A stretch of 64,000 nucleotides of DNA. Source: Escherichia phage pEC-M719-6WT.2. A program made the position numbers and the translations under genes. The notes under the pieces are model-generated. The model was not told where the DNA came from. It ran no database searches and saw only the letters and a program-made list of their open reading frames with translations. Location: sequence record OQ845958.1; one strand, given 5' to 3'. Shown one piece after another: positions 32,345 to 60,717 of this stretch (position 1 is its first letter; the number at the start of each line of letters is the position of its first letter).

Positions 32345-34155
32345 TAAGCAATCCTTACCCAGCGATGAGCAATCAAATATGGAGGCATTGTATAAACTGG
32401 TTGAGCTTGAGGGTCTTGCGCCTGATTAATGGTGGCTTTGTCTTCTCTGTATTTGGTATAGGCTGGACCTTGTGCATCTGGGTCTACCTGACAACCACCG
32501 ACAACAATCGGACCATTATCATCAACAACTAAAACCTTCTCATCAGTTTCAAGTTTAGGTACGTTTATATCTTTAATATGAACTTCAACGCTACCACCTG
32601 TACCACCTGCTGTCGCTTGTGGGTTACCACCAGAATCCAGGTCATTATTGTTTGTATGGAAGTTTGAGGCAGGGTCGTCTGACCAGGCAACAATTACACG
32701 TTCTTTCAAACGTTTCCATGAACCAAATCCCATATAAGTAACCGGGTTATTTGGGTTAACTGTATTTTCGTAAATTGTACCGACCGGATAGAATAATTCA
32801 AAGATAGCGCCAACAGAAGATGGAACAACTTCCTGAAGACCGACTGGTTCAACGTTTGGTGCAAACGGATTATCAAAATCTGTAATACGCACACGACCGG
32901 TTAGGCTTAACGTATTTCCCTGAGAAACATAAAGAGTATCAGTCTCATCACGGATTTCATCCATGGTCATAGTTGTGCCGATATCGTTATTGTACCAAAT
33001 GACCGACAGAATATCACCGTCTTCAAATTCACGGTAAATGCTAATGCCTTCGATACGGTTATCATCATCAAATTGCAGCAAATAATCCTGGTTTGATTCA
33101 GACCAGCTACCACCATTTGCACTACATTCTGCAGCAGTAGAACCTTGTGCACCTTCACAATAAAATACTGGAGTTCCCGCAGTACCAGCTTGATGTTGCA
33201 AAATACTGTTAATGAATACCTGACATGCGTTTGGGTTAATTGGGCTACCCGGAGAAATACCAAGTTCTTCAATTGTAAAGGTGTGTTTGGTTGTCAAATC
33301 TGTAACAATCAAAGAACCATTAATTGTTGTTTCTTTGGTCCTGTCTTGACTACGAACAAGTATATCACGACGATTATACGAACTACGCCATTGAGCAATA
33401 CCATCATTAAATGTTCGGATGATAACAGTATCACCTTCAGCACATGGCATTTTCAGACGGATGCTTTTACCATCAAGCGCAACGATTTCACCAGGGTTTG
33501 CACCAGGGGAACCAAATTCAGCATTCACCGGGTCGAAAATATCATCTTTACCATAAAACAGGTCGTTACCACGATGTTTGACTTCTAAGTTCGATACGCT
33601 ATATGGAATAGCACCAAACACATTGATAAAGTCAGTTTGTCCTTCGGTGGCAATAAACTGTTGGGATGCAACTGTGGCAACGTCGTTATTTGAAATTTTA
33701 TCGACTTGTTTATTATCGATATATTCCCAACGACCTGGTGAACAATATACAAGTTCAAGGTCAGCTAAGTTGCGTTTAATTTCTACTGGATTCGGTGAGC
33801 CTTTAATCGTATCCCCAACTGCAGGAACAATTGTCACCGGGTTGATTTGCCAGGTAGCAAACACATCACGCAAGCGAATTACATAATTGTATTCTTGAGT
33901 TGTTCCTTTTGGAAGGATAACTCGAACTGCACCGGCTGATGTATCGATGGTATAGCTTCGACCCATAACAGCGGACAACTCGGTGCCTTCTTGCGTAGTC
34001 CAAGTTTTCCATGCACCAGCTGCATGGGGATTTTCACCGTCCCCTAGCTGATAATAAAGGTCATCAAAGTTATTATTTATTTTTTGACCGCCGAGACGAA
34101 GGTAATCACCAGTACCATCATCAACCATATTGCCAATTTTTAAATTCTGTTTCAT
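32344..34155 (-). CDS. 10: Baseplate wedge protein gp10
   Basis: 603 aa (T4 602 aa); position in the 9-10-11 series. Confidence 0.85.
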   Translation of the reverse strand: MKQNLKIGNMVDDGTGDYLRLGGQKINNNFDDLYYQLGDGENPHAAGAWKTWTTQEGTELSAVMGRSYTIDTSAGAVRVILPKGTTQEYNYVIRLRDVFATWQINPVTIVPAVGDTIKGSPNPVEIKRNLADLELVYCSPGRWEYIDNKQVDKISNNDVATVASQQFIATEGQTDFINVFGAIPYSVSNLEVKHRGNDLFYGKDDIFDPVNAEFGSPGANPGEIVALDGKSIRLKMPCAEGDTVIIRTFNDGIAQWRSSYNRRDILVRSQDRTKETTINGSLIVTDLTTKHTFTIEELGISPGSPINPNACQVFINSILQHQAGTAGTPVFYCEGAQGSTAAECSANGGSWSESNQDYLLQFDDDNRIEGISIYREFEDGDILSVIWYNNDIGTTMTMDEIRDETDTLYVSQGNTLSLTGRVRITDFDNPFAPNVEPVGLQEVVPSSVGAIFELFYPVGTIYENTVNPNNPVTYMGFGSWKRLKERVIVAWSDDPASNFHTNNNDLDSGGNPQATAGGTGGSVEVHIKDINVPKLETDEKVLVVDDNGPIVVGGCQVDPDAQGPAYTKYREDKATINQAQDPQAQPVYTMPPYLIAHRWVRIA

Positions 34156-48389: not shown

Positions 48390-48689
48390 ATGCAAACGCT
48401 CCATGAATTTTTGGTAGAAAACAATTACCTGGCAGAAGCAAAAACCTGGCCTCTGGGCCTTCAGAAGAAAAACACCTACAAATGGGTTGACTTCAAAGGT
48501 AAAGGCGACGCTGAAGACTTTGACCAGCTGCGTAAAAATGGTTATACCTTCCTTGACTCTAATTATAACAAAATTACCTCTTTTAGTCAGAAATCAAGCA
48601 TTGCTTTCATTGAAACTGGTAAGAACACCCCTAAAAATATCACTGACGACTTCGCTGCTTATGGCGTAATTCGTGGTAGTAAGATGTAA
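48390..48689 (+). CDS. Internal-protein-like small protein (MQTLHEFLVE)
   Basis: 99 aa with CTS-like N-terminus; followed by a terminator. Confidence 0.55.
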   Translation: MQTLHEFLVENNYLAEAKTWPLGLQKKNTYKWVDFKGKGDAEDFDQLRKNGYTFLDSNYNKITSFSQKSSIAFIETGKNTPKNITDDFAAYGVIRGSKM

Positions 48690-48696
48690 TTAACAA

Positions 48697-48720
48697 AAGG
48701 GGATAATTATCCTCTTTTTA
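48697..48720 (+). terminator. Rho-independent terminator (GGGGATAA/TTATCCTC + T-run)
   Basis: AAAAGGGGATAATTATCCTCTTTTTA. Confidence 0.6.
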
Positions 48721-48735
48721 TGGCTTGGAGACAAC

Positions 48736-48978
48736 ATGAAAACTTATCAAACATTTATAACAGAATCTTCCCATGGTATGGAAGTTAAACTTGGTCAAGC
48801 CCTTGCTGAAGCAGAGCGCCTGTTTGCACGTATCAAAGAACTTGCTGATTCAGTAGACGCATCATCTTTTAAAGGCGACCAGGGTAAAGTTAAAGCTCTC
48901 CTTGCTCTTTGTTCCGATGCAGGCGAGATTGCTAAGAACGGCACCAAGATGAAAAAACGTCTGGAAGACTTAAAATAA
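48736..48978 (+). CDS. Internal-protein-like small protein (MKTYQTFITE)
   Basis: 80 aa with near-canonical CTS. Confidence 0.6.
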   Translation: MKTYQTFITESSHGMEVKLGQALAEAERLFARIKELADSVDASSFKGDQGKVKALLALCSDAGEIAKNGTKMKKRLEDLK

Positions 48979-48979
48979 A

Positions 48980-49020
48980 GTATACGCGATGGGATAACTG
49001 CAGTATAATTATCTCATCAA
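48980..49020 (+). promoter_or_regulatory. Early promoter / stem-loop cassette (GTATAC-N18-TATAAT within GATAA..TTATC)
   Basis: GTATAC 48980-48985, TATAAT 49004-49009, conserved leader TCAACTACTGGAGA. Confidence 0.5.
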
Positions 49021-49034
49021 CTACTGGAGACAAC

Positions 49035-49289
49035 ATGAAAACTTATCAAGAATTTATTAACGAAGCCGCAGATGCAAAAGTTGAGTTTGCTTATGTTGGT
49101 TCCCCGCGTGGTAGTTTTTCTAATGAGGAATTGCGCCGTTCACTAGACAACTTCATGCAGTTAAGTGCTGAAGTATCGCATGATGGTCGCTATGACATCG
49201 TTACCATTAAAGGTTCTGAAGACCTTATCAAAAAGTGGCACAAGCAGAAAGATGTTGAGATGCGTTACTATCGTATCCCTAAAAAATAA
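49035..49289 (+). CDS. Internal-protein-like small protein (MKTYQEFINE)
   Basis: 84 aa with canonical CTS-like N-terminus. Confidence 0.6.
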   Translation: MKTYQEFINEAADAKVEFAYVGSPRGSFSNEELRRSLDNFMQLSAEVSHDGRYDIVTIKGSEDLIKKWHKQKDVEMRYYRIPKK

Positions 49290-50396: not shown

Positions 50397-50516
50397 TAAA
50401 AACGCGTTATTATTAATAAGTACCCTCTATTACCAAAGGTTCTTCCCTCAAAGAACCTTTCATAATAGCATGTGCTATTAATCAAACTTACTTTACTTAA
50501 TTTTACTTGAGGTGTT

Positions 50517-50786
50517 ATGTTAGTATTAAAATTAGCTTTTTATGACCCTAAAACAAAGACAACCACTACCAAACGTTGCTCTATTTCGTATGAGTGTCAA
50601 TTTGGCGAAATTCAGCATCCAACAGGCGAAACCTTTATGTCAATTGGTTGTTCAACATTTAATAAAGTCAAATTAATCCCGTTGGTTAACGCGGCAGCTT
50701 ATCTGGTTGCACCAGAAGAAATGACTTATCATACAATTCAGCATATGGTTAAAGATGATAATGCTCCCGCTGGATTTGTAATTTAA
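50517..50786 (+). CDS. Hypothetical protein
   Basis: 89 aa with GAGGTG RBS; ends 5 nt before the tRNA. Confidence 0.5.
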   Translation: MLVLKLAFYDPKTKTTTTKRCSISYECQFGEIQHPTGETFMSIGCSTFNKVKLIPLVNAAAYLVAPEEMTYHTIQHMVKDDNAPAGFVI

Positions 50787-50791
50787 TTTTA

Positions 50792-50867
50792 GGCCCTGTA
50801 GCTCAATTGGTTAGAGCATCCGGCTCATAACTGGCAGGTTTCCGGTTCAAGTCCGGATGGGGCCACC
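50792..50867 (+). tRNA. tRNA with anticodon CAT (Met, or Ile2 by analogy with the T4 AUA-reading tRNA-Ile)
   Basis: Manual fold: acceptor GGCCCTG/TGGGGCC, D-arm GCTC..GAGC, anticodon loop CTCATAA, T-arm TCCGG TTCAAGT CCGGA; one anticodon-stem mismatch. Confidence 0.8.
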
Positions 50868-50944
50868 CGGGGTGTAGCTCAATTGTATAGAGCAACGGTC
50901 TTCTAAACCGTAGGTTGTGGGTTAGAATCCCACCACCCCGACCA
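50868..50944 (+). tRNA. tRNA-Arg (anticodon TCT)
   Basis: Manual fold: acceptor CGGGGTG/CACCCCG, anticodon stem ACGGT/ACCGT, loop CTTCTAA, T-arm GTGGG TTAGAAT CCCAC, encoded CCA. Confidence 0.85.
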
Positions 50945-50959
50945 ATTACCGAGGATATT

Positions 50960-51199
50960 ATGGTTATTAGTGAATCATATGCAGTTATGGATATAACCAA
51001 CAACGAGCTGGTTTATAGCTTTGATGAGTTTGATGAAAATGATAAACAAGTCCCATGGTTTGCATTAACTGCTCCACCTGAGCATAATAAATATCTAAGT
51101 TTCCCGACTCGCAGATTAGCAACAAATTTTATGGAATTCAATGACCTTGATTCCAATTACAAGGTTGTTAAAGTCAAATTAGCTATTACAATTGAATGA
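50960..51199 (+). CDS. Hypothetical acidic protein
   Basis: Track ORF starts inside the tRNA; start moved to ATG 50960 with GAGGA RBS. Confidence 0.5.
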   Translation: MVISESYAVMDITNNELVYSFDEFDENDKQVPWFALTAPPEHNKYLSFPTRRLATNFMEFNDLDSNYKVVKVKLAITIE

Positions 51200-51432
51200 G
51201 AAACCGGGTCGCTACCGGTAAGTCGTCGGACTGAAGTTCCCTGGAGTATAGTTCCTCCCACAGTTTTACTGTGTTCTGGTTCTTTACTATCACAGCTGAA
51301 ACGGCGCACCCTTTTAACGGAGTTTTTCCAGAGCGGACGGTGCGTCCGGTAGTATGAGAAATCCGAGCGGATGGTGCATCCGGTACTATGGAATATAAAT
51401 ATTAACAACAACCCTAATAATGGAAAAACAAA
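51200..51432 (+). ncRNA. Candidate structured small RNA locus next to the tRNAs
   Basis: 233 nt with no ORF; several hairpins including two tandem hairpins with compensatory substitutions; T4 carries small stable RNAs in its tRNA region. Confidence 0.3.
51331..51390 (+). repeat. Tandem 26-nt hairpin repeat (two copies, period 34) with covarying stem
   Basis: gagCGGACGgtgCGTCCGgtagtatg / gagCGGATGgtgCATCCGgtactatg. Confidence 0.7.
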
Positions 51433-51816
51433 ATGCTTACATATGCAGAATTTTTAAATCGCAATACCATCACCGAATCCATACTGACTGAAGCTGGTAA
51501 ATTTTCTTTAGTGGCTCCAGAAAAAGCCGGTGTTTCAATTGGTGACCGTGTTATGTTCAAGAAACCAGTTAATGGTGTTTCTTGGGGTATCGTAACTGGG
51601 TTTGGCATCAAAGCTAAAGACGTTAAAAATGCCGCGGCACCAGGTGCCAAACTGGCCGGTTCTAAAGTTTCAACTTATATGGTTCGCCCTAAACAGTCTC
51701 CAGGTAATGGTGCTGCTGACTGGGTTGGCGCTCCAATCGAAATCGCTCGTGATAAATTCTTGAACATCACCGACCGTGCCAACGAACGCGCTGCAATGGC
51801 ATTCGCTCGCGGATAA
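51433..51816 (+). CDS. Hypothetical protein with weak CTS-like N-terminus (MLTYAEFLN)
   Basis: 127 aa; followed by a hairpin terminator. Confidence 0.5.
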   Translation: MLTYAEFLNRNTITESILTEAGKFSLVAPEKAGVSIGDRVMFKKPVNGVSWGIVTGFGIKAKDVKNAAAPGAKLAGSKVSTYMVRPKQSPGNGAADWVGAPIEIARDKFLNITDRANERAAMAFARG

Positions 51817-51852
51817 GAACACTTGCCTTGCAGGTGGAACCCCGACAAGGTA

Positions 51853-51884
51853 TAGCCCCTTCCGAAAGGTTGGGGCTTTTTTAT
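51853..51884 (+). terminator. Rho-independent terminator
   Basis: AGCCCCttccgaaaggttGGGGCTTTTTT. Confidence 0.65.
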
Positions 51885-51905
51885 AAATCAACTAAAGAGA
51901 AACGT

Positions 51906-52460
51906 ATGAAACTGTTAAAATATTTGAGTTGGATTCTGTTAGTTCCGCTGGATTTTATCTCCATGATTCTGGCCGTTATCCTGGCTCCATTTGTAGTTCC
52001 GTTCCATAATAAAAAGACTGGTAAACTTCCGTTCGGGTTTGATTGGATGATGACTTATGATAATCCGATTGATGGTGACCGGGGTCATGTCAAACGTTGG
52101 TCAAAAATCCGAAAATGGCCATTAGGTGTTTACTTCCAACGAGTAGCCTGGCTCTGGCGAAACAAAGCATACAATTTTGCTTACCACAAGCTCGGTCGTG
52201 ATTGCAATTCAGAATTCCATTATAAAGGTAATCCTGATGTTGAATCCGGCTCCCCAGACAAAGCTCACCATGGCTGGCTCTGGATGTGGAATGATAATGC
52301 ATGGGGTGTGTTCGCTTCCGTACCTTATCTTAAAGTTGGTGGAATCACCTTTTATCTGCGCGTGTATTGCGGTTGGAAGCTCAAGAGTCTTCTGTCCCGA
52401 CCAATCCCTAAGGCTATGCTCGCCTTTCATATAAATCCGTTCCGCTTTTATAAGAACTAA
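51906..52460 (+). CDS. Hypothetical Trp-rich protein with N-terminal transmembrane anchor
   Basis: Start moved to ATG 51906 (MKLLKYLSWILLVPL) with RBS; hydrophobic N-terminus; terminator follows. Confidence 0.55.
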   Translation: MKLLKYLSWILLVPLDFISMILAVILAPFVVPFHNKKTGKLPFGFDWMMTYDNPIDGDRGHVKRWSKIRKWPLGVYFQRVAWLWRNKAYNFAYHKLGRDCNSEFHYKGNPDVESGSPDKAHHGWLWMWNDNAWGVFASVPYLKVGGITFYLRVYCGWKLKSLLSRPIPKAMLAFHINPFRFYKN

Positions 52461-60225: not shown

Positions 60226-60717
60226 ATGAATATATTCGAAATGTTACGCATAGATGAAGGTTGTAAGTTGGATTTGTATAAAGATACTGAAGGCTATTGG
60301 ACCATTGGTATCGGGCAACTGATAACTAAGAACCCATCAAAAGATGTTGCTCGTGCCGAGCTCGACAAGCTCATGGGTCGCGTCTGTAATGGTCGCATAA
60401 CCCAGCACGAAGCTGAAACATTGTTTAACCGTTCGGTCGAAAAAGCTAAAGCCGGAATCTTGAGACATCCTGTCTTAAAACCTGTTTATGATGTACTTGA
60501 TGAAGTTCGTCGTTGTGCACTCATTAATATGGTATTCCAAATGGGTGTTGCTGGTGTTGCTGGTTTTCCTAAGGGTATGCGATTGCTGAAGGCTAAATCA
60601 TGGGAAGCGGCTGCTAAGGAACTGGCGGACTCAAGATGGTATAAAGTCCAGACTCCGAACCGAGCCAAACGAGTTATAGAAACGTTCCGCACCGGAACTT
60701 TTGACGCATACAAATAA
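60226..60717 (+). CDS. e: Endolysin (T4 lysozyme family)
   Basis: 163 aa; near-identical to T4 lysozyme ([56 protein letters not shown]). Confidence 0.97.

Follow-up and report, generated by a model that had tools for sequence, protein, structure and literature searches.

The window, a 64,000-nt stretch of Escherichia phage pEC-M719-6WT.2 (OQ845958.1), carries two adjacent tRNA genes followed by a small ORF (ORF79), a gap and a gene behind a late promoter (ORF127), all on the + strand. ORF79 stops with TGA at 51197-51199 and the next ATG lies at 51433, and the 233 nt between them (51200-51432) are indeed, as the original prediction had it, free of + strand ORFs of at least 30 aa. Two mechanical ORFs on the - strand overlap the gap (51157-51411 and 51186-51293). 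The tRNAs score 62 and 74 bits against the Rfam tRNA model, and ORF79 matches phrog_33509 (E 4.5e-57) and is annotated as hypothetical in VR20, SP18 and P479. Judged by sequence comparison, the gap is a composite of two RNA features, a copy of rnaD, which is a known T4 small RNA, and a separate, previously undescribed twin-hairpin module. The main features are as follows.

50792-50867, + strand: tRNA-Met(CAU), from ARAGORN and an Rfam tRNA match
50868-50944, + strand: tRNA-Arg(UCU), from ARAGORN and an Rfam tRNA match
50960-51199, + strand: ORF79, a small phage ORF between tRNA-Arg and rnaD, from the ORF list and phrog_33509
51196-51311, + strand: ortholog of T4-type rnaD (species 2 RNA), from homology to T2, RB9 and T4 and a conserved fold
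51311-51818, + strand: 508-bp cassette of spacer, twin-hairpin module, late promoter, ribosome-binding site and ORF127, from comparison with P479 and SP18
51433-51816, + strand: ORF127, 127 aa, behind the late promoter, from the ORF list
51819-51883, + strand: segment found 3' of rnaC in other phages (AACACTTGCCTTGCAGGTGGAACCCCGACAAGG), terminator and TATAAATC, from sequence comparison

Within the last of these, the intrinsic terminator consists of a stem-loop (51854-51877) and a T run, followed by TATAAATC ahead of a DUF7338 gene. An Rfam/Infernal scan, proposed as a check on the gap, found nothing there: matches to Rfam 15 in the region at E ≤10 are confined to the two tRNAs, and none falls in 51200-51432 with E <9.9. 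Rfam likewise gave no match for rnaC, rnaD or the Kanagawavirus form of the module, with seven related loci yielding tRNAs only at E ≤0.01.

The rnaD region

The sequence of 51196-51311 identifies it as an ortholog of the T4-type stable RNA rnaD, with ends placed by analogy with the RB9 annotation. Identity to T2 is 97% across 51199-51310 and identity to T4 is 96% in the first 54 nt, and the region overlaps the RB9 feature annotated as rnaD "species II RNA". The match to T2, RB9 and T4 resides in a conserved 5' part (~44 nt) and a 3' part (~25 nt). As in T4, rnaD follows the tRNA genes in the same orientation, lying 3' of tRNA-Met and tRNA-Arg, although here the inserted ORF79 separates it from tRNA-Arg; the order ORF79-rnaD-rnaC is found in P479 and SP18. 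RNAalifold recovers a conserved fold from nine homologs, comprising a 5' hairpin and two long-range helices, the latter common to T4-type rnaD and covarying, with compensatory pairs at alignment columns 8/24, 40/107 (U:A versus A:U), 51/97 and 52/96. Two local hairpins belong to this RNA.

51203-51219, + strand: rnaD 5' hairpin ACCGG-GTCGCTA-CCGGT, from the sequence and consensus structure
51259-51273, + strand: hairpin CACAG-TTTTA-CTGTG, the variable central domain of rnaD in its T2 type, from the sequence

Both had been predicted, the second at exactly this position and the first about 10 nt too far downstream (51213-51229). A base pair of the 5' hairpin varies between A:U, G:U and G:C among homologs. 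The central domain is of the T2 type, unlike that of T4 and RB9, and VR20-like and SP18-like phages carry a different hairpin in it. The encoded 3' end is ACCC here rather than the ACCA of T4.

In T4, rnaC and rnaD are stable RNAs of unknown role (PMC3014915, PMC9697503). Both have been reported by RNA-seq with Northern validation, for which a probe against RNAC is described (PMC9697503). In these Gaprivervirus genomes rnaD is unannotated, and hypothetical proteins are annotated across it instead. The whole gap had been proposed as a small RNA comparable to those of the T4 tRNA cluster. This is right for the first half. The covarying hairpins lie outside rnaD, and two separate things had been merged.

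The cassette in place of rnaC

The sibling phages P479 and SP18 carry rnaD-rnaC between identical flanks, the upstream one ending in ACGGCGCACC and the downstream one beginning with AACACTTGCCTTGCAGG, and the cassette at 51311-51818 exactly replaces their rnaC. The T4 species 1 RNA is thus absent from its slot: a search of all 64 kb that allowed up to three mismatches did not find its tRNA-like T arm/3' part (AACCGGGTTCRAATCCCGGCG), and 51311-51432 does not align to rnaC. The tandem hairpins belong to neither of the two T4 RNAs. The cassette was found in only 15 GenBank phage records; VR20 and ECML-359 are examples of phages that carry it. Its gene-proximal elements are these.

51394-51401, + strand: T4-type late promoter TATAAATA, from the sequence and its conservation in relatives
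51421-51435, + strand: ORF127 initiation region, UGGAAAAAC (includes the Shine-Dalgarno GGA) and the AUG at 51433, from the sequence

The late promoter, recognized by the published consensus (PMC3014915), lies directly 3' of the hairpin module and is invariant in 10 phages, and (T/G/C)ATAAATA occupies the equivalent position 5' of the equivalent gene in nine other genera. Late transcription would be expected to start near 51407. Other promoter types were considered and set aside, a MotA-box middle promoter having no TGCTT at -30 and a T4 early promoter being represented by GTTTAC in CIP9 only, at the wrong spacing. ORF127 has no Pfam, PHROG or PDB match; its similarity to the phrog_2280 family covers only the N-terminal ~25 aa, and its likeness to the Kanagawavirus gene is likewise confined to the N-terminus. 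With MLTYAEFL...ITE, this segment is similar to the capsid-targeting sequence found on T4 internal proteins (PMC3012670), and ORF127 probably encodes a capsid-injected protein.

The twin hairpins and their junction

Upstream of the late promoter lie two tandem GTG-loop hairpins, CGGACG-GTG-CGTCCG (A) and CGGATG-GTG-CATCCG (B), just as predicted. They are part of a 26-nt direct repeat (51331-51356 and 51365-51390, 34 nt apart, 88% identical), and the sole difference between their stems, C51338:G51344 versus T51372:A51378, is a true compensatory pair. The elements of the module and the strand preceding it are listed here.

51322-51330, + strand: GUUUUUCCA, candidate anti-Shine-Dalgarno strand just 5' of the module, from the predicted fold
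51331-51348, + strand: unit A, the invariant GAG with hairpin A, CGGACG-GUG-CGUCCG (51334-51348), as P2, from the repeat, covariation and a covariance model
51349-51355, + strand: GUAGUAU, 5' strand of lower P3, pairing with 51383-51389, from the module fold
51356-51367, + strand: 12-nt one-sided internal loop GAGAAAUCCGAG, ending in the second invariant GAG, from the module fold
51368-51382, + strand: hairpin B, CGGAUG-GUG-CAUCCG, the upper P3 stem, from the repeat, covariation and a covariance model
51383-51393, + strand: GUACUAU, 3' strand of lower P3 (51383-51389), and GGAA, 3' strand of P1 (51390-51393), from hand alignment and fold

The repeated unit is specific to this site. A degenerate 18-mer occurs twice in the 64 kb where 0.04 occurrences are expected, and the two copies reach 48 and 34.6 bits (E ~1e-7 and 6e-5) against a covariance model of the unit, with the next best hit in the window at 10 bits. 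Other hairpins with a GGTGC loop (32853-32867 on the + strand and 60684-60698 on the - strand) lie inside long ORFs and were judged to be chance. Covariation analysis over homologous loci, another of the proposed checks, shows the pairing kept in relatives: across nine distinct units 96% of cells pair, all six stem pairs show double-sided change, and none of 500 shuffles equals this. The GUG loop and the 5' GAG are invariant across Gaprivervirus and Kanagawavirus units. Hairpin A takes the form CGGGCG/CGCCCG in five of 10 near-identical phages, such that an A:U to G:C double change segregates between phages at least 97% identical, and TH44 and TH40 have a G·U variant of hairpin B (CGGGUG/CAUCCG). 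The single-sided changes, seen in TH44, TH40, metagenome locus L211 and Vettismorki (3-4 cases), are G·U on the + strand. Thermodynamic stability by itself does not stand out: z is -0.4 over the interval as a whole, and the hairpins taken singly have -1.6 and -0.9. The original prediction argued for selection on structure from the two window copies, and the relatives strengthen that case; the covariation supports selection on the twin hairpins as + strand RNA structure.

The flanks of the hairpins extend this fold. We model 51322-51393 as a structured + strand RNA of ~70 nt with a three-way junction, in which UUCC/GGAA forms P1, hairpin A forms P2, and GUAGUAU/GUACUAU capped by hairpin B forms P3. 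Lower P3 and P1 pair in both lineages despite different sequences: Kanagawavirus has GUAUUCGU/GCGAAUAU at the place equivalent to lower P3 and UAUC/GAUA for P1, the internal loop is 12 nt long in both (GGUUUACCUGAG in CIP9), and in TH44 a U·G pair of lower P3 becomes C-G. The junction also emerges from RNAalifold (z = -9.6 versus column shuffles), the support for P1 and lower P3 coming from only two divergent lineages in a hand-made alignment. Folds that pair with the initiation region are predicted to be more stable than the closed junction by ~8 kcal/mol.

The module has a narrow distribution. IMG/VR pattern scans returned true loci only in VR20, CHI14, EcS1, CIP9 and one CIP9-like contig, a metagenome scan added one (L211), and loci of phrog_2280-like family relatives held no new module variant. 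The remaining IMG/VR pattern matches arose by chance, for instance in GC-rich genomes or collagen-like repeats. The module had no BLAST match in 5,426 E. coli genomes, and it is therefore not REP-like or host-derived. EcS1 and CHI14 have kept the gene and its late promoter but no more of the module than one degenerate hairpin, and so can do without it. That the repeat arose by duplication is shown by a degenerate promoter copy in unit A (TATGAGAAATC versus TATGATAAATA).

Several known classes were compared with the tandem unit. Guanidine-II/mini-ykkC RNAs are tandem-hairpin regulatory RNAs with identical conserved loops (ACGR). The likeness is one of architecture only, namely two like hairpins that share an unvarying loop, are joined by a short linker and lie near a ribosome-binding site, whereas the loops here are GUG, the flanks form a junction and there is no Rfam match at E ≤10. 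A CRISPR repeat or solitary repeat unit was rejected on the 8-nt spacer and, to our knowledge, the unit has no likeness to I-E or I-F repeats. ToxI-type antitoxin repeats fit in their 34-nt period and GAAAU linker but were dismissed for the lack of an Rfam match and the simple-hairpin fold. As for a CsrA site, the GGA lies in the stem and is missing from Kanagawavirus hairpin A; an RNase P minihelix was rejected because the unit lacks a 3' CCA; and a short peptide ORF through hairpin B shows non-synonymous changes in a frame not common to hairpin A.

Possible roles of the module

A cis-acting leader element is the role suggested by where the module lies and by its complementarity to the ribosome-binding site. 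In T4, the ribosome-binding sites of genes e, soc, 49 and I-TevI are masked on early read-through RNA, with a late promoter inside the structure (PMC3014915). The arrangement here is similar, since TATAAATA separates a 5' strand (51322-51330) from the initiation region (51421-51435) with which that strand can pair, a predicted 9-bp helix (51322-51330/51421-51429) covers the Shine-Dalgarno, and late transcripts would lack the 5' strand. Our leading, though tentative, account of the interval is an rnaD ortholog followed by a twin-hairpin leader that would mask ORF127 translation on read-through RNA. The module would be present only on RNAs begun upstream in the tRNA/rnaD unit and reading through, since late transcription starts shortly downstream of it. 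On such RNAs GUUUUUCCA would pair with UGGAAAAAC at the ORF127 ribosome-binding site, the compact hairpin module would shorten the loop to be closed by this helix, and translation before the late phase would be held down. Late transcripts from ~51407 would have an open initiation region. In this way the module may govern how ORF127 is translated from read-through RNA made early.

The folding predictions bear on this in both directions. When 51313-51450 is folded, the minimum-free-energy structure contains the 9-bp helix, of which 51323-51330 (UUUUUCCA) and the partner UGGAAAAA form part, and shuffled sequences seldom offer a 9-nt complement (P ~0.002-0.006), but the helix does not appear when the entire 51199-51470 RNA is folded. 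On the long RNA the ribosome-binding site is predicted to cost ~0.9 kcal/mol more to open than on the late RNA if more upstream sequence is included, and 1-2.3 in other contexts. This masking energy is small, and the locus also differs from the T4 leaders in that the 5' strand lies ~65 nt 5' of the promoter and that the loop encloses a covarying twin-hairpin junction. A comparable helix of 8 bp is present in Kanagawavirus, EcS1 and CHI14 between GAAUAUGA, over the late promoter, and UCAUAUUC, which immediately precedes the Shine-Dalgarno; CHI14 has a G·U variant of it. In Kanagawavirus this helix ends 1 nt before the Shine-Dalgarno, abutting rather than covering it, and overlaps the junction instead of enclosing it, which means that no single simple mechanism is common to both lineages. 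Additionally, UUCC (51326-51329) within GUUUUUCCA is usable for P1 instead, and competition between P1 and the masking helix could allow the module to act as a switch. A simple scaffold role leaves the invariance of the GUG loop and GAG unexplained, and this invariance suggests recognition by a factor.

Such recognition would also fit a stable RNA. The module could be cut from the tRNA/rnaD precursor and accumulate as a trans-acting small RNA that stands in for rnaC, perhaps binding or decoying a host or phage factor that recognizes GUG loops. It occupies the exact rnaC slot directly 3' of rnaD, the Kanagawavirus module likewise follows a conserved structured RNA, the compact covarying fold with invariant loops and GAG flanks suits a factor, and T4 rnaC and rnaD are themselves stable RNAs (PMC3014915, PMC9697503). 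We nonetheless consider this unlikely, given that the module lacks the tRNA-like acceptor/T arm that directs RNase P or 3' processing in rnaC as well as a promoter or terminator of its own, always occurs together with the late promoter, ribosome-binding site and capsid-targeting N-terminus, and has decayed in EcS1 and CHI14 where the gene is kept.

Similarly improbable is a role in RNA processing or stability, whether by flanking an RNase E site in the A/U-rich linker, by blocking 3' exonucleases and so protecting the upstream rnaD/ORF79 RNA, or by capping a processed ORF127 mRNA at its 5' end. Two stable stems do flank a single-stranded GAGAAAUCC linker, every lineage has a stable hairpin or terminator here 5' of the equivalent gene's late promoter, and no further terminator occurs in the window from rnaD to ORF127. 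A thermodynamic barrier alone, however, needs no invariant loops, GAG flanks or covarying junction, and Kanagawavirus has a separate strong hairpin in addition to the module. Nor are the hairpins intrinsic terminators, as A and B are followed by GUAGUAUG and GUACUAUG with no U tract and the terminator scan was silent.

More doubtful still is that the junction is the sensor domain of an RNA switch that controls whether an injected internal protein is translated before the late phase. The two invariant GAG...GUG elements would be read by a protein or small ligand that drives the closing of P1 and lower P3, and the closed junction would compete with the initiation-region helix through UUCC in Gaprivervirus and GAAUAUGA in Kanagawavirus; a variant of this idea is a processed decoy RNA that replaced rnaC. 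Such a switch, if real, would give T4-type phages their first described riboswitch-like element.

A DNA-level element, either paired palindromic protein sites at ~-30 and ~-64 of the late promoter or a recombination joint, is very improbable. The conserved spacing between the units (34-35 bp) and the fixed distance to TATAAATA (8-11 bp) could suit protein sites, and a 23-nt identity (TCCAGAGCGGACGGTGCGTCCGG) joins otherwise diverged genera at this cassette boundary. A joint would recall the PeSL, an early promoter plus stem-loop that serves as a cassette-shuffling motif in T4-like phages (PMC4122927), with which the module shares a composite of stem-loop and promoter at a swapped-cassette boundary in a hyperplastic region. 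Unlike PeSLs, though, it has a late and no early promoter, its stem-loops lack a U tract and the unit is single-copy, at one locus in 64 kb. The half-sites vary freely with only complementarity kept, the invariant centre GTG is asymmetric, the single-sided changes are all G·T on the + strand (3-4 cases only), and the covariation of the flanks makes sense only for a folded single strand. We give least credence of all to a functionless leftover from tandem duplication of a hairpin and late-promoter unit, structured by accident, which would suit the decayed promoter copy, the narrow distribution and the decay in EcS1 and CHI14, but not six of six stem pairs changed on both sides with pairing intact and loops fixed, nor a double compensatory change segregating among phages at least 97% identical.

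Our literature search found no transcriptome for Gaprivervirus or Kanagawavirus. Overall, the locus presents a compact, covariation-backed RNA motif where a unit of stable RNAs transcribed early meets a late gene whose product is probably capsid-injected, at a place where cassettes are swapped and rnaC has been exchanged for the module and ORF127. P479 and SP18, with rnaC, and the window phage, with the cassette, make a natural allelic pair for asking about the role of rnaC or its replacement. According to a 2010 review, T4 had yielded no characterised riboswitch or trans-acting regulatory RNA, and candidates might come from its relatives (PMC3014915). The twin-hairpin module is a concrete, small and mutable candidate for such a regulatory RNA.

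Locus layout and the rnaD half of the gap

The phage belongs to the Gaprivervirus group of T4-like myoviruses, and 50400-52000 is matched best by ECML-359, EAWsc9, the TH phages and VR20. The locus is arranged as follows:

50792-50867, + strand: tRNA-Met
50868-50944, + strand: tRNA-Arg
50960-51199: ORF79, 79 aa, phrog_33509
51200-51432: noncoding gap of 233 nt between ORF79 and ORF127
51334-51348: hairpin A, CGGACG-GTG-CGTCCG
51368-51382: hairpin B, CGGATG-GTG-CATCCG
51394-51401: perfect T4 late promoter, TATAAATA
51433-51816: ORF127, 127 aa

The gap was originally predicted to be free of ORFs, and it holds no + strand ORF of at least 30 aa. An antisense ORF of 84 codons with a TTG start (51157-51411, minus strand) spans rnaD and the hairpins. 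The "hypothetical proteins" annotated over this interval in some GenBank relatives are probably mis-annotations.

By BLAST, the first 50-115 nt of the gap are the sole part matched in hundreds of T-even genomes. In RB9 the matching feature, labelled "rnaD, species II RNA", precedes rnaC (species 1 RNA), and 51199-51310 aligns to T2 with 97% identity. Homologs of rnaD (T2, RB9, VR20, vB_EQ1, JS98, and several TH phages) share a 5' part of about 44 nt and a 3' part of about 25 nt (...ACGGCGCACC), with three unrelated versions of a central hairpin in between. Their RNAalifold consensus comprises a 5' hairpin and two long-range helices, with compensatory pairs that include alignment columns 40/107 (U:A vs A:U). 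This homology and conserved fold make the first two predicted hairpins parts of rnaD: CACAG/CTGTG lies where it was placed, at 51259-51273, and ACCGG/CCGGT exists about 10 nt further left than proposed, at 51203-51219. The observation itself is confirmed, and the suggestion of a T4-like small RNA is right for one half: judged by sequence, the first half of the gap is a known small RNA, while the covarying hairpins form a separate element. In T4, RNAC and RNAD are stable RNAs whose function is not known (PMC3014915, PMC9697503, PMC12685909).

The rnaD central domain occurs as T2, T4/RB9, and JS98 types (window 51244-51290, locus L004 1430-1480, locus L186 1045-1095). All three are found among otherwise near-identical phages with both ends conserved, which looks like a domain swap inside the small RNA. 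A sigma-70-like promoter (TTGTTA, 16 nt, TACAAT) lies at 51165-51192 within the end of ORF79, and its expected start near 51199-51200 is the 5' end of the rnaD ortholog, suggesting that rnaD may own a promoter where ORF79 parts it from tRNA-Arg.

A cassette in place of rnaC

Only 15 GenBank phage records, each at least 97% identical, match 51310-51440, which also has a short match in Kosakonia phage 305. In the sibling Gapriverviruses P479 and SP18, ORF79, rnaD, and rnaC are followed by AACACTTGCCTTGCAGG..., a terminator, and a DUF7338 gene; between the same flanks our phage has 51311-51818 where rnaC would be. The rnaC T arm has no match anywhere in the window. On this comparison, the cassette 51311-51818 is a replacement of rnaC. 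It contains the two hairpins, the late promoter, a weak Shine-Dalgarno, and ORF127, which has no relatives in Pfam, PHROG or PDB. The N-terminus of ORF127 (MLTYAEFLNRNTITE) is similar to the sequence that targets T4 internal proteins to the capsid (MKTYQEFI.E; for the concept, PMC3012670). Its likeness to the phrog_2280-type gene, which stands at the corresponding position in Kanagawavirus, Mosigvirus, Dhakavirus, Karamvirus and others, is confined to that N-terminus. Upstream of the tRNA genes, three consecutive small ORFs (48390-49289) with capsid-targeting-like N-termini MQTLHEFL, MKTYQTFITE, and MKTYQEFINE look like an internal-protein cluster.

Further RNA features occur in relatives. A structured noncoding RNA (AAGGCUGGCGAAUGACCUCUGGGUG...GUCAUCAGAGCCGA; L012 about 1005-1060, L011 about 1085-1150, L008 about 1045-1100, L003 about 1385-1430) is conserved in Kanagawa-, Winkler-, and Marfavirus, where it precedes the twin-hairpin module or the late promoter. 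This RNA has no Rfam family, has a layout reminiscent of rnaD, and likewise carries GGGUG in its apical loop. Kosakonia phage 305 (L003) carries an unannotated rnaC-like sequence at 1010-1160 (T arm CCTGGTTCGAATCCAGG), partly covered by a minus-strand "hypothetical protein", and a second T-arm-like stretch at about 1262-1340 where ARAGORN calls no tRNA.

Covariation and fold of the twin hairpins

The tandem units sit in a 26-nt direct repeat (51331-51356 and 51365-51390, offset 34 nt), and their stems differ, as predicted, solely by a C:G vs T:A pair. Two copies of the degenerate hairpin motif are present in 64 kb, where 0.04 would be expected. The folding energy of the gap and hairpins is by itself unremarkable, so the case for the hairpins depends on comparison with relatives. 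In every lineage a stable hairpin or terminator, then (T/G/C)ATAAATA, lies 5' of the phrog_2280-type gene. Kanagawavirus (Kosakonia 305, CIP9, IME523, Q7622, MY742, one IMG/VR contig, and one metagenome contig) carries a hairpin pair built to the same plan, spaced 35 nt, ahead of the late promoter, and EcS1, CHI14, and Vettismorki have one partly decayed unit each. The stem variants are CGGACG/CGTCCG, CGGATG/CATCCG, CGGGCG/CGCCCG, CAAGCG/CGCTTG, TGGACG/CGTCCA, and CAAGCA/TGTTCT. Across nine distinct units, stem pairing is kept in 96% of cells, all six pairs show double-sided change, and the GTG loop and 5' GAG are invariant; none of 500 shuffles and no slid register came near these values. The proposed selection on structure is supported by this covariation. 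The phages with at least 97% identity divide evenly over hairpin A, five with CGGACG/CGTCCG and five with CGGGCG/CGCCCG, and this split crosses rnaD types. Single-sided stem changes (hairpin B of TH44, TH40, and metagenome locus L211; also Vettismorki) give G·U on the + strand and would give A·C on the opposite strand, and these few cases therefore favour hairpins acting as + strand RNA.

In the window, the sole copies detected by a covariance model of the unit are hairpins A and B (48 and 34.6 bits; next best 10), and the model has no match in T4-, T2-, JS98-, PG7- or Marfa-type loci. Hairpins with a GGTGC loop at 32853-32867 (+) and 60684-60698 (-) have 5 bp, lie inside long ORFs, lack GAG and flank features, and were set aside as chance. 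The GGUGC atop both hairpins (51339-51343, 51373-51377) is the reverse complement of GCACC at the rnaD 3' end (51306-51310), probably by chance for a 5-mer.

When the two-hairpin segment is folded alone, GUAGUAU 3' of hairpin A (51349-51355) pairs with GUACUAU 3' of hairpin B (51383-51389), lengthening hairpin B beneath a 12-nt one-sided internal loop. CIP9 reaches the same fold, also with a 12-nt loop, from different sequences (GUAUUCGU/GCGAAUAU). In a hand alignment made with structure in mind, all proposed junction pairs are standard in all seven distinct modules, and three lower-stem pairs change on both sides between what are effectively two lineages; TH44 has C-G in place of U·G. The 4-bp closing helix also covaries (UUCC/GGAA vs UAUC/GAUA). 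The RNAalifold consensus of this hand-built, effectively two-lineage alignment is a three-way junction (z = -9.6 vs 300 column shuffles). As to the Rfam scan proposed as a check, Rfam has no model for rnaC or rnaD, and the junction matches nothing in Rfam 15.

A possible leader for ORF127

The late promoter initiates transcription immediately 3' of the module (51322-51393), which would therefore be present solely on RNA initiated upstream and reading through; there is no terminator between rnaD and ORF127. The tract GUUUUUCCA (51322-51330) could pair without a mismatch with UGGAAAAAC (51421-51429), a stretch that includes the Shine-Dalgarno. A complement of 9 nt is rare in shuffles (P about 0.002-0.006), and the minimum-free-energy fold of 51313-51450 has the 9-bp helix as its closing stem, with the hairpins enclosed. 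The counterpart in Kanagawavirus, EcS1, and CHI14 is an 8-bp helix, GAAUAUGA/UCAUAUUC (P about 0.03-0.04; G·U variant in CHI14), of which the first strand overlaps the late promoter and the second stops 1 nt before the Shine-Dalgarno. The layout is like that of T4 genes e, soc, 49, and I-TevI, in which translation is masked on early read-through RNA and transcription of late RNA starts within the structure (PMC3014915). By this analogy and the predicted folds, the most likely role of the module would be to mask ORF127 initiation on read-through RNA. Support is modest because in realistic contexts the long RNA is predicted to need just 0.9-2.3 kcal/mol more than the late RNA to open the initiation region, because folds pairing with that region are predicted to be about 8 kcal/mol more stable than the closed junction, and because the Gaprivervirus and Kanagawavirus helices differ in detail. 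The module would serve as a compact scaffold or, since P1 (the closing helix) and the masking helix use the same UUCC, as a competing partner. A scaffold role leaves the invariant GUG loops and GAG flanks unexplained, which hints at a factor reading them.

Other readings fare less well. Sitting where rnaC would be, the module could be a processed stable RNA that substitutes for it, which we consider unlikely, and a role of the hairpins as a signal for RNA processing or stability is about as doubtful. A DNA-level site or recombination joint is improbable beside the strand bias of the G·U changes, and a neutral duplication remnant, set against the covariation, is more improbable still.

Judging by Rfam 15 and the literature searched, the twin-hairpin junction is undescribed. 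The element has a narrow distribution and a function that we infer; the junction is best filed among the structured leaders around T4 late promoters, as a variant of them.
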